Shown here: positions 28,691 through 29,932 of the stretch, piece after piece
Position numbering within the stretch: the first letter of the stretch is position 1
Layout: each line of letters starts with the position of its first letter
Assembly (NCBI RefSeq): GCF_030028105.1
Contig: NC_092392.1
Location: 53,743,414-53,807,413 of the forward strand
Direction: 5' to 3'
Length of the DNA: 64,000 nucleotides
Source of the DNA: Mobula birostris
Lineage: Eukaryota
Program-made: the position numbers and the translations under genes
The notes under the pieces: generated by a model
What the model was told of the DNA's origin: nothing
The model's input: the letters and a program-made list of their open reading frames with translations, nothing else
Databases searched by the model: none

Positions 28691-29932
28691 ATGTTGGCCA
28701 GGAAGAGCATCATCCCAGAGGAGTACGTCCTGGCCCGGATCGCGGCTGAGAATGTCCGGCAGCCCCGCTATACAATACGTCCTCGCCAACCCCGCTTCAT
28801 AAACAAGAACGGAGCTTGCAACGCGGCGCATAAGAACATCCAAGAGCAAGGTCGCTTCCTGCAGGATGTCTTCACCACCCTGGTAGACCTGAAGTGGCGC
28901 TACACCCTTTTCATCTTCACCATGTCCTTCCTCTGCAGTTGGCTACTCTTCGCCATGATGTGGTGGCTGGTGGCCTTCGCGCACGGAGACCTGGACCACA
29001 GACAGAGCGCGTCCTTCGAGCCGTGCGTCACCAAGGTGAGGTCGTTCACCTCGGCCTTCCTTTTCTCCATCGAGGTGCAGGTCACCATCGGCTTCGGCGG
29101 CAGGATGATGACCGAGGAGTGCCCCACGGCCATCACCGTGCTCATCATGCAGAACATCTCGGGGCTGATCATCAACGCCGTCATGCTGGGCTGCATCTTC
29201 ATGAAGACTGCTCAGGCTCACCGGAGAGCGGAGACCCTGATCTTCAGCCGGCACGCCGTGGTCGGCCTGAGGAACGGCAAGCTCTGCTTCATGTTCAGAG
29301 TGGGCGACCTGAGGAAGAGCATGATCATCAGCGCCTCGGTCCGGATGCAGGTTGTGAAGAAGACCACCACCACCGAGGGAGAGGTTATCCCCATCCACCA
29401 GATCGACATCCTGGTGGACAACCCCATTGACACCAACAACATCTTCTTGGTGGCGCCGCTCACCATCTGCCACGTTATAGACAAGCGGAGCCCTCTCTAC
29501 GAGATCTCGGCCAGCGACCTGCAGCACCAGAACCTGGAGGTGATCGTCATACTGGAAGGCGTGGTGGAGACCACTGGCATCACCACCCAGGCCAGGACGT
29601 CTTACATCGCCGAGGAGATCTTGTGGGGCTACCGCTTCGTCCCGATCGTGACCGAGGAGGACGGTACCTACTCGGTGGATTACTCCAAGTTCGGCAACAG
29701 GATCAAAGTGGCGACTCCTCGCTGCACGGCCAGAGAGCTGGATGAGAAGCCCTCCATCCTGATCCAGACCCTGCAGAAGAGTGAGCTCTCGCACCAGAAC
29801 TCGCTGAGGAAGCGGAGTTCGATGAGGCGAAACAACTCGATGAGGAGGAACAACTCGACCCTTCTGGTCCCCAAAGTCCAATTCGTTACTCCCGAAGGCA
29901 ATATTGATGCTGCTGACTCCGAGTTTAACTGA
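28691..29932 (+). CDS. kcnj8: ATP-sensitive inward rectifier K+ channel subunit, Kir6.1-like, copy A (413 aa, intronless CDS, Gln at residue 51)
   Basis: Intact ORF. N-terminus [21 protein letters not shown], filter TIGFGGR, RKR ER-retention motif, RRNNS repeats and C-terminal [11 protein letters not shown] all match recalled human Kir6.1 rather than Kir6.2. Confidence 0.95.

Follow-up and report, generated by a model that had tools for sequence, protein, structure and literature searches.

The 64-kb stretch of ray DNA analysed here (64,000 nucleotides, hereafter the window) raises a specific question: why do two nearly identical Kir6.1 genes differ at all three bases of the codon for an ATP-binding residue?

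The KCNJ8 pair and codon 51

The ORF map of the window contained two intronless Kir6 ORFs arranged tail-to-tail. Copy A of KCNJ8 (28691..29932, plus strand) is a single-exon ORF of 413 aa with Gln at residue 51 and a long C-terminal tail; copy B (62131..63345, minus strand) is a single-exon ORF of 404 aa with Arg at residue 51 and a short C-terminal tail. PDB chain alignment identified the copies as Kir6.1, with 744 bits against the Kir6.1 of 7MIT and 606 bits against Kir6.2. The best protein matches were all KCNJ8, and the RRNNS repeat expected in a Kir6.1 tail was present. A search of the 4.0-Gb genome returned these two KCNJ8 genes and no third copy.

Together with two genes on C13, the genome total was four Kir6 genes. 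Both C13 genes encode Arg at the site corresponding to residue 51, by the codon CGA, and one of the two proteins shares 95% identity with a Hypanus protein, 89% with one from Pristis and 84% with one from Narcine, so that the animal is probably a ray of the stingray order. The C13 genes are single ORFs located 63 Mb apart (L001, 3664-4866; L002, 4185-5327), and comprise a 400-aa kcnj11-like gene and a 380-aa gene close to an LDH locus. A Kir6.3-type gene has been described as confined to zebrafish (PMC5367309); the sequences suggest that this type is not zebrafish-only.

An LDH exon was found at C27:53.60 Mb, approximately 170 kb from copy A, a position that would fit LDHB, a neighbour of KCNJ8. 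For ABCC9, the other expected neighbour, the candidates scored (87 of 113 and 19 of 187) included no ABC exon on C27. The mammalian KCNJ8 coding sequence has an intron. Compared with vertebrate KCNJ8, for which zebrafish primers span exons (PMC5367309), the ray has two copies and a coding sequence without an intron.

An ungapped comparison of coding nucleotides 1-1166 confirmed the count given in the first-pass annotation, with 11 differences between the copies, three of them within codon 51. This codon is CAA (Gln) in copy A (28841..28843, plus strand) and AGG (Arg) in copy B (63193..63195, minus strand). Alignment to PDB chains also bore out the assignment of the residue as Kir6.1 R51, equivalent to Kir6.2 R50. 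The other eight coding differences comprise five synonymous changes together with A107T, T146M and V191I, and the copies differ at 4 of 375 core residues. When 11 differences were placed independently in 1166 nt, three were adjacent in 0.08% of 400,000 trials.

Of 137 words sampled from copy A, the shares present in runs X1, X2 and X3 were 1.00, 1.00 and 0.99, with a chance of about 3% that none of these words touches codon 51. Because of these shares, an assembly error at codon 51 is unlikely. Runs X1-X3 may share their individual with the assembly (sample S2 is a possible assembly source, and S1 and X2 come from one study), so that the word shares do not speak to fixation of Q51 in the species.

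AGG and CAA are connected via CGG or CGA by one amino-acid change and two synonymous steps, Gln being a single step from CGA or CGG. Elsewhere, the copies show 5 synonymous differences over 266 sites (1.9%), and at this background a difference at each of the two outer bases of codon 51 has a probability of ~4 × 10−4. Codon 51 displays synonymous differences beside a putatively selected site, as in Leptodactylus ATP1A1, and a triple change made in one step would mimic such hitch-hiking bases.

Age of the pair and of the codon-51 difference

The copies are homogenised over an arm that begins in copy A 33 nt before the ATG, ends at codon 389 (28658..29856, plus strand) and lies inverted in copy B (62180..63378, minus strand). 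The arms show 13 mismatches in 1199 nt, and beyond them flank homology is limited to short weak matches. The copy-A-specific tail (29857..29932, plus strand) resembles the long tails of sharks and tetrapod Kir6.1; the copy-B-specific tail (62131..62179, minus strand) resembles short shark tails and is the same as the tail end of skate protein P0001. Because the genes lie tail-to-tail, both tails are located inside the inverted arms, together with a repeat-rich spacer of 32 kb (29933..62130). A crossover between the arms would invert the spacer and exchange the tails between the 5' ends. GC-biased conversion is not claimed for the arm, whose GC3 of 0.87 was not above that of the other Kir6 genes (0.81 and 0.88).

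Two retrotransposon copies with reverse-transcriptase-like ORFs, presumably LINE-like, flank copy A on either side. They are 93% identical and both lie on the minus strand (18255-20946 and 48267-50970); more decayed copies of the element are spread across the window.

Protein cluster look-ups revealed two KCNJ8-like proteins per contig in five sharks. The long and short members measure 410/405 aa in Carcharodon, 412/407 in Rhincodon and in Stegostoma, and 413/408 in Chiloscyllium plagiosum and in Hemiscyllium. The chimaera Callorhinchus has a pair of 416/408 aa. All these pairs are known from proteins alone, and that of Callorhinchus represents two loci only probably. Within species, the core (first 375 residues) showed 0 differences in five pairs and 2 in Carcharodon, and between species 0 to 60 of 375, with Rhincodon and Stegostoma identical. 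The tails sort by type across species, long like A and short like B, and in the core protein tree (28 rows, zebrafish left out) the copies cluster by species or close kin. At the protein level, the cores of an anciently duplicated pair thus group by species.

The simple reading of these proteins is one early duplication with continuing conversion, that is, ancient concerted evolution. Gene conversion between the copies, proposed in the first-pass annotation, agrees with the near-identical cores within species and the distinct tails. The duplication is common to cartilaginous fishes, a point absent from that earlier interpretation. Chimaeras split from sharks and rays ~400 million years ago, and concerted evolution of the KCNJ8 pair would be of very long standing. 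A chondrichthyan KCNJ8 pair was not found described in the open-licence literature, nor was a natural Q51 subunit.

Some pairs show features of their own. In the white shark, the only core differences between the copies are I50V and T72A in the short-tail protein (P0125, Carcharodon); I50 adjoins the residue that binds ATP, and 2 of 262 proteins have Val at this position. Among the Callorhinchus proteins P0004, P0138 and P0007, the N-terminus has two forms at residues 14-21 and the tail also has two; the long tail occurs with both N-termini, as would be expected from 5'/3' swapping or assembly chimerism.

To place Gln51 among Kir6 proteins, 290 sequences were collected, of which 29, mostly fragments, had no readable motif. 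Among the 261 readable proteins, site 51 was Arg in 258, Met in two and Gln in one. The only Gln belongs to KCNJ8 of the skate Rhinoraja (P0001), which has a short B-type tail, opposite to the window. The short-tail KCNJ8 of Leucoraja and Amblyraja has R51, and all six shark/chimaera pairs are R/R. Since all shark and chimaera copies have Arg, the Q/R split is, judging by these proteins, younger than the duplication. The expectation that the dichotomy would be tied to each locus was not supported as stated, given these six pairs and the skate Gln on a copy-B tail.

Searches by N-terminal region, short fragments and 50% representatives yielded no further ray or skate KCNJ8, and no long-tail skate KCNJ8 was obtained in protein searches. 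Kir6.2-like proteins of stingray, sawfish and electric ray were retrieved and their KCNJ8 was not; the results may lack a cluster. A degenerate pattern gave 0 matches against metagenome contigs. As a separate observation, the Leucoraja (P0121) and Amblyraja (P0122) proteins share several changes at otherwise conserved sites that are absent in Rhinoraja, including E181G and G137S, the latter directly after the selectivity filter. Short-tail KCNJ8 may be diverging in hardnose skates.

Four of 24 sequencing runs were compared to the window, and only X17 (organism C) informs on codon 51. X10 and X20 had no coding-sequence cover and X19 none at codon 51, such gaps being uninformative. Organism C differed from copy A at 18 of 1013 core nt (1.8%) and at 40 of 689 upstream nt. 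A collapsed contig path spans 28844-29856 at a depth of 13-15; as contigs drop small variants, this identity of the core in organism C is apparent only. The path breaks at 29857, the point of the A/B tail split, and the A tail goes on past it at a depth of 11, which points to both KCNJ8 copies in organism C.

Over 28724-28873, X17 yielded two contigs, one of depth 8.1 with 7 differences and one of depth 5 with 11 differences. Contigs of this run overlap by 30 nt throughout, and a single contig begins at 28844; therefore, the last base differing between the two paths is 28843. This is the third base of codon 51, and the window's own pair predicts an identical break. Among the differences listed, only 28801 was changed in both paths, which suggests that the C found at 28841 in the window is retained in one path; organism C may then have Gln. 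Organism C carries copy-B letters at 28801, 29009, 29127 and 29428, and these four differences are therefore young changes in copy A.

The codon-51 difference itself probably predates the split of the window and organism C. The first-pass proposal of an old functional divergence thus stands in part: from the contig breakpoints, the codon-51 difference appears to predate the other differences, yet it is younger than the duplication. Its survival on both lineages has a probability of ~0.002-0.009 under a uniform neutral conversion model, and of as much as 0.06-0.12 in the Poisson limit. Since the organism-C paths differ at at least 4 sites across 28754-28843, conversion may be rare or slow close to the 5' edge of the arm.

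Two other runs gave contigs with notable ends. X19 (organism E) has a single contig (29072-30368) that passes from the core into the tail of copy A and beyond, unbroken at 29857, and X10 (organism B) shows a break at 28695, where both copies would merge. These contigs are a weak hint of copy-specific representation, the runs being only guessed to be RNA. Runs X1, X2 and X20 are likewise RNA by guess only, and no run recorded as RNA was found to contain copy A.

Explanations for the Gln/Arg difference

Our main reading, to which we assign an even chance, is that Q51 arose once in rays and skates, that selection blocks its conversion, and that it forms a less ATP-sensitive subunit, with inversions that may swap the tails. 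KCNJ8 would have duplicated early in cartilaginous fishes, and gene conversion would keep the single-exon copies near-identical over the 1.2-kb arm while promoters and, at the protein level, tails diverge. One copy would then have gained R51Q in rays and skates, probably once and possibly by a CpG transition from CGA. Conversions erasing the Q/R difference would be selected against, and the outer synonymous-capable bases would be carried along, producing the triple difference. If the inverted arms crossed over downstream of codon 51, the 5' end of A would be joined to the tail of B, and such a swap would explain a skate with Q51 and a short tail under a single origin.

The main reading is favoured by CGA in both other Kir6 genes and by the lone Gln in another batoid KCNJ8. 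Against it stand the skate Gln on the opposite tail and two or three young amino-acid changes in copy A, which are compatible with relaxed constraint. A wider version seems to us doubtful, though worth stating: batoids since their common ancestor would have kept an ATP-desensitised and a canonical Kir6.1 in an inverted, still converting pair that dates back several hundred million years. Inversions would reshuffle promoter and ATP site versus tail, and mixed tetramers would set the vascular or neural KATP threshold.

Survival of the difference without selection is the strongest alternative, and we regard it as unlikely. The difference would be moderately old and would have persisted near the 5' edge of the arm, where conversion is rare, in a redundant copy that tolerates it, having perhaps been created by one templated multi-nucleotide event. 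Five of the 11 differences do fall within the first 153 coding nt, and in organism C differences cluster immediately 5' of codon 51. However, only 2 differences occur in the window over the ~175-180 nt that separate the 5' edge of the arm from codon 51, so conversion reaches this segment, and Arg at the site in nearly all readable proteins also speaks against this alternative. An inverted 10-nt match to the Q-type context of codon 51 (28313..28322, minus strand), 519 nt upstream, may have templated such a change in one step or may be fortuitous, and multi-base changes have empirical support (PMC7954308). Yet 2.5% of 20,000 random triple changes had a comparable inverted match within 600 nt, the 10-mer was noticed post hoc, and a neutral course leaves the skate Gln unexplained.

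Quite improbable, in our estimate, is a separate origin of Gln in the ray and in Rhinoraja, each by a CpG transition in a partly redundant gene, with any selection being recent and lineage-specific. It fits with the Gln residues on differing tail types, with Arg in two other skates on Rhinoraja's tail type and with the single step that leads from CGA or CGG to Gln. Against recurrent change stand Gln in 0 of 6 shark/chimaera pairs and non-Arg residues in only 3 of 261 proteins, and tail swapping by inversion is a simple alternative.

The functional part of the main reading draws on Kir6.2. The ATP contact asserted in the first-pass annotation is documented in a structural source, where the side chain of R50 contacts ATP twice, coordinating the gamma-phosphate and stacking against the adenine (PMC5655142). 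Weaker ATP block by R50Q likewise has published backing: in human Kir6.2 the IC50 is raised in the heterozygous state, and the substitution is among the milder neonatal-diabetes mutations (PMC3714477, as far as its available sections go). Q51 would thus remove a gamma-phosphate-binding side chain, and by analogy with Kir6.2 copy-A channels would be less readily closed by ATP and mixed tetramers intermediate. Vascular Kir6.1 has fewer ATP contacts, binds ATP more loosely and is less ATP-sensitive than Kir6.2, R51 being unnamed in the available portion of that source (PMC8694068). Given the Kir6.2 data and this already weaker sensitivity, a moderate loss of ATP block is the most likely effect in channels containing copy A. 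The net effect is uncertain because Kir6.1 binds ATP loosely and R50A reduces open probability as well as ATP sensitivity (PMC2229524, partial text).

The residue might have been selected for another property, such as a reduced open probability, a change in PIP2 or SUR coupling, or a damping role within mixed tetramers; this we rate as slightly less probable than separate origins. The R50A phenotype would suit it, as would the network that links R50 to Q52 and R54 close to the PIP2 site (PMC5655142) and the difference in gating between Kir6.1 and Kir6.2 (PMC8694068), both from partial texts; the moderate gain of function of human R50Q (PMC3714477, likewise partial) speaks against it. An artefact, either an erroneous CAA or a false duplication, is very improbable: the best DNA runs may come from the assembly's own source and their support consists of word shares, but these are nearly complete in three runs, the flanks are distinct, the tails match shark pairs, and organism C forks both at 29857 and at codon 51.

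Known parallels and significance

The parallel drawn in the first-pass annotation with Leptodactylus ATP1A1 R/S held for the age of the duplication, for concerted evolution and for synonymous bases that hitch-hike. A residue tied to one locus across species is absent in sharks (R/R), and beyond them the evidence is mixed, with the break at 28843 in organism C on one side and the skate Gln on the other tail type on the other. Both systems have linked duplicates with differences at a functional site and at adjacent synonymous positions, and in the frogs synonymous differences hug selected sites at a median of 4 bp, according to the available part of the source (bioRxiv 10.1101/2020.08.04.234435). 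The frog genes, by the same partial text, are a direct tandem with 12 sites common to five species, measured function and an age of ~35 million years. The ray pair, in contrast, is inverted, differs at one such site that is not tail-tied, and arose by a duplication far older than the site difference; trans-species persistence is only indirect here, and the functional difference is by analogy to Kir6.2. If the main reading is correct, the ray offers a rare vertebrate instance of one codon held against gene conversion.

In its arrangement, the locus resembles the flip/flop region of Saccharomyces, a homogenised inverted gene pair around a spacer of 24 kb, compared with 32 kb in the ray (PMC9731477, available text). 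Re-inversion has been demonstrated in the yeast, whereas in the ray it would follow from the tail types.

Human Kir6.2 R50Q (PMC3714477, partial text) is the same substitution at the homologous residue and also involves mixed wild-type and mutant subunits. Unlike the human case, the ray Gln is in Kir6.1 and occupies a whole paralog, and copy B and the other two Kir6 genes have the canonical Arg. Under the main reading, Q51 would be a natural, tolerated form of a human channelopathy substitution, and a background differing by only four core residues would allow a direct test of what R51 does in Kir6.1. Met for the ATP-binding Arg was found in the teleost kcnj11-like, Kir6.3-type proteins P0215 (Neogobius) and P0259 (Fundulus), which, as read from their sequences, is another natural loss at this position.
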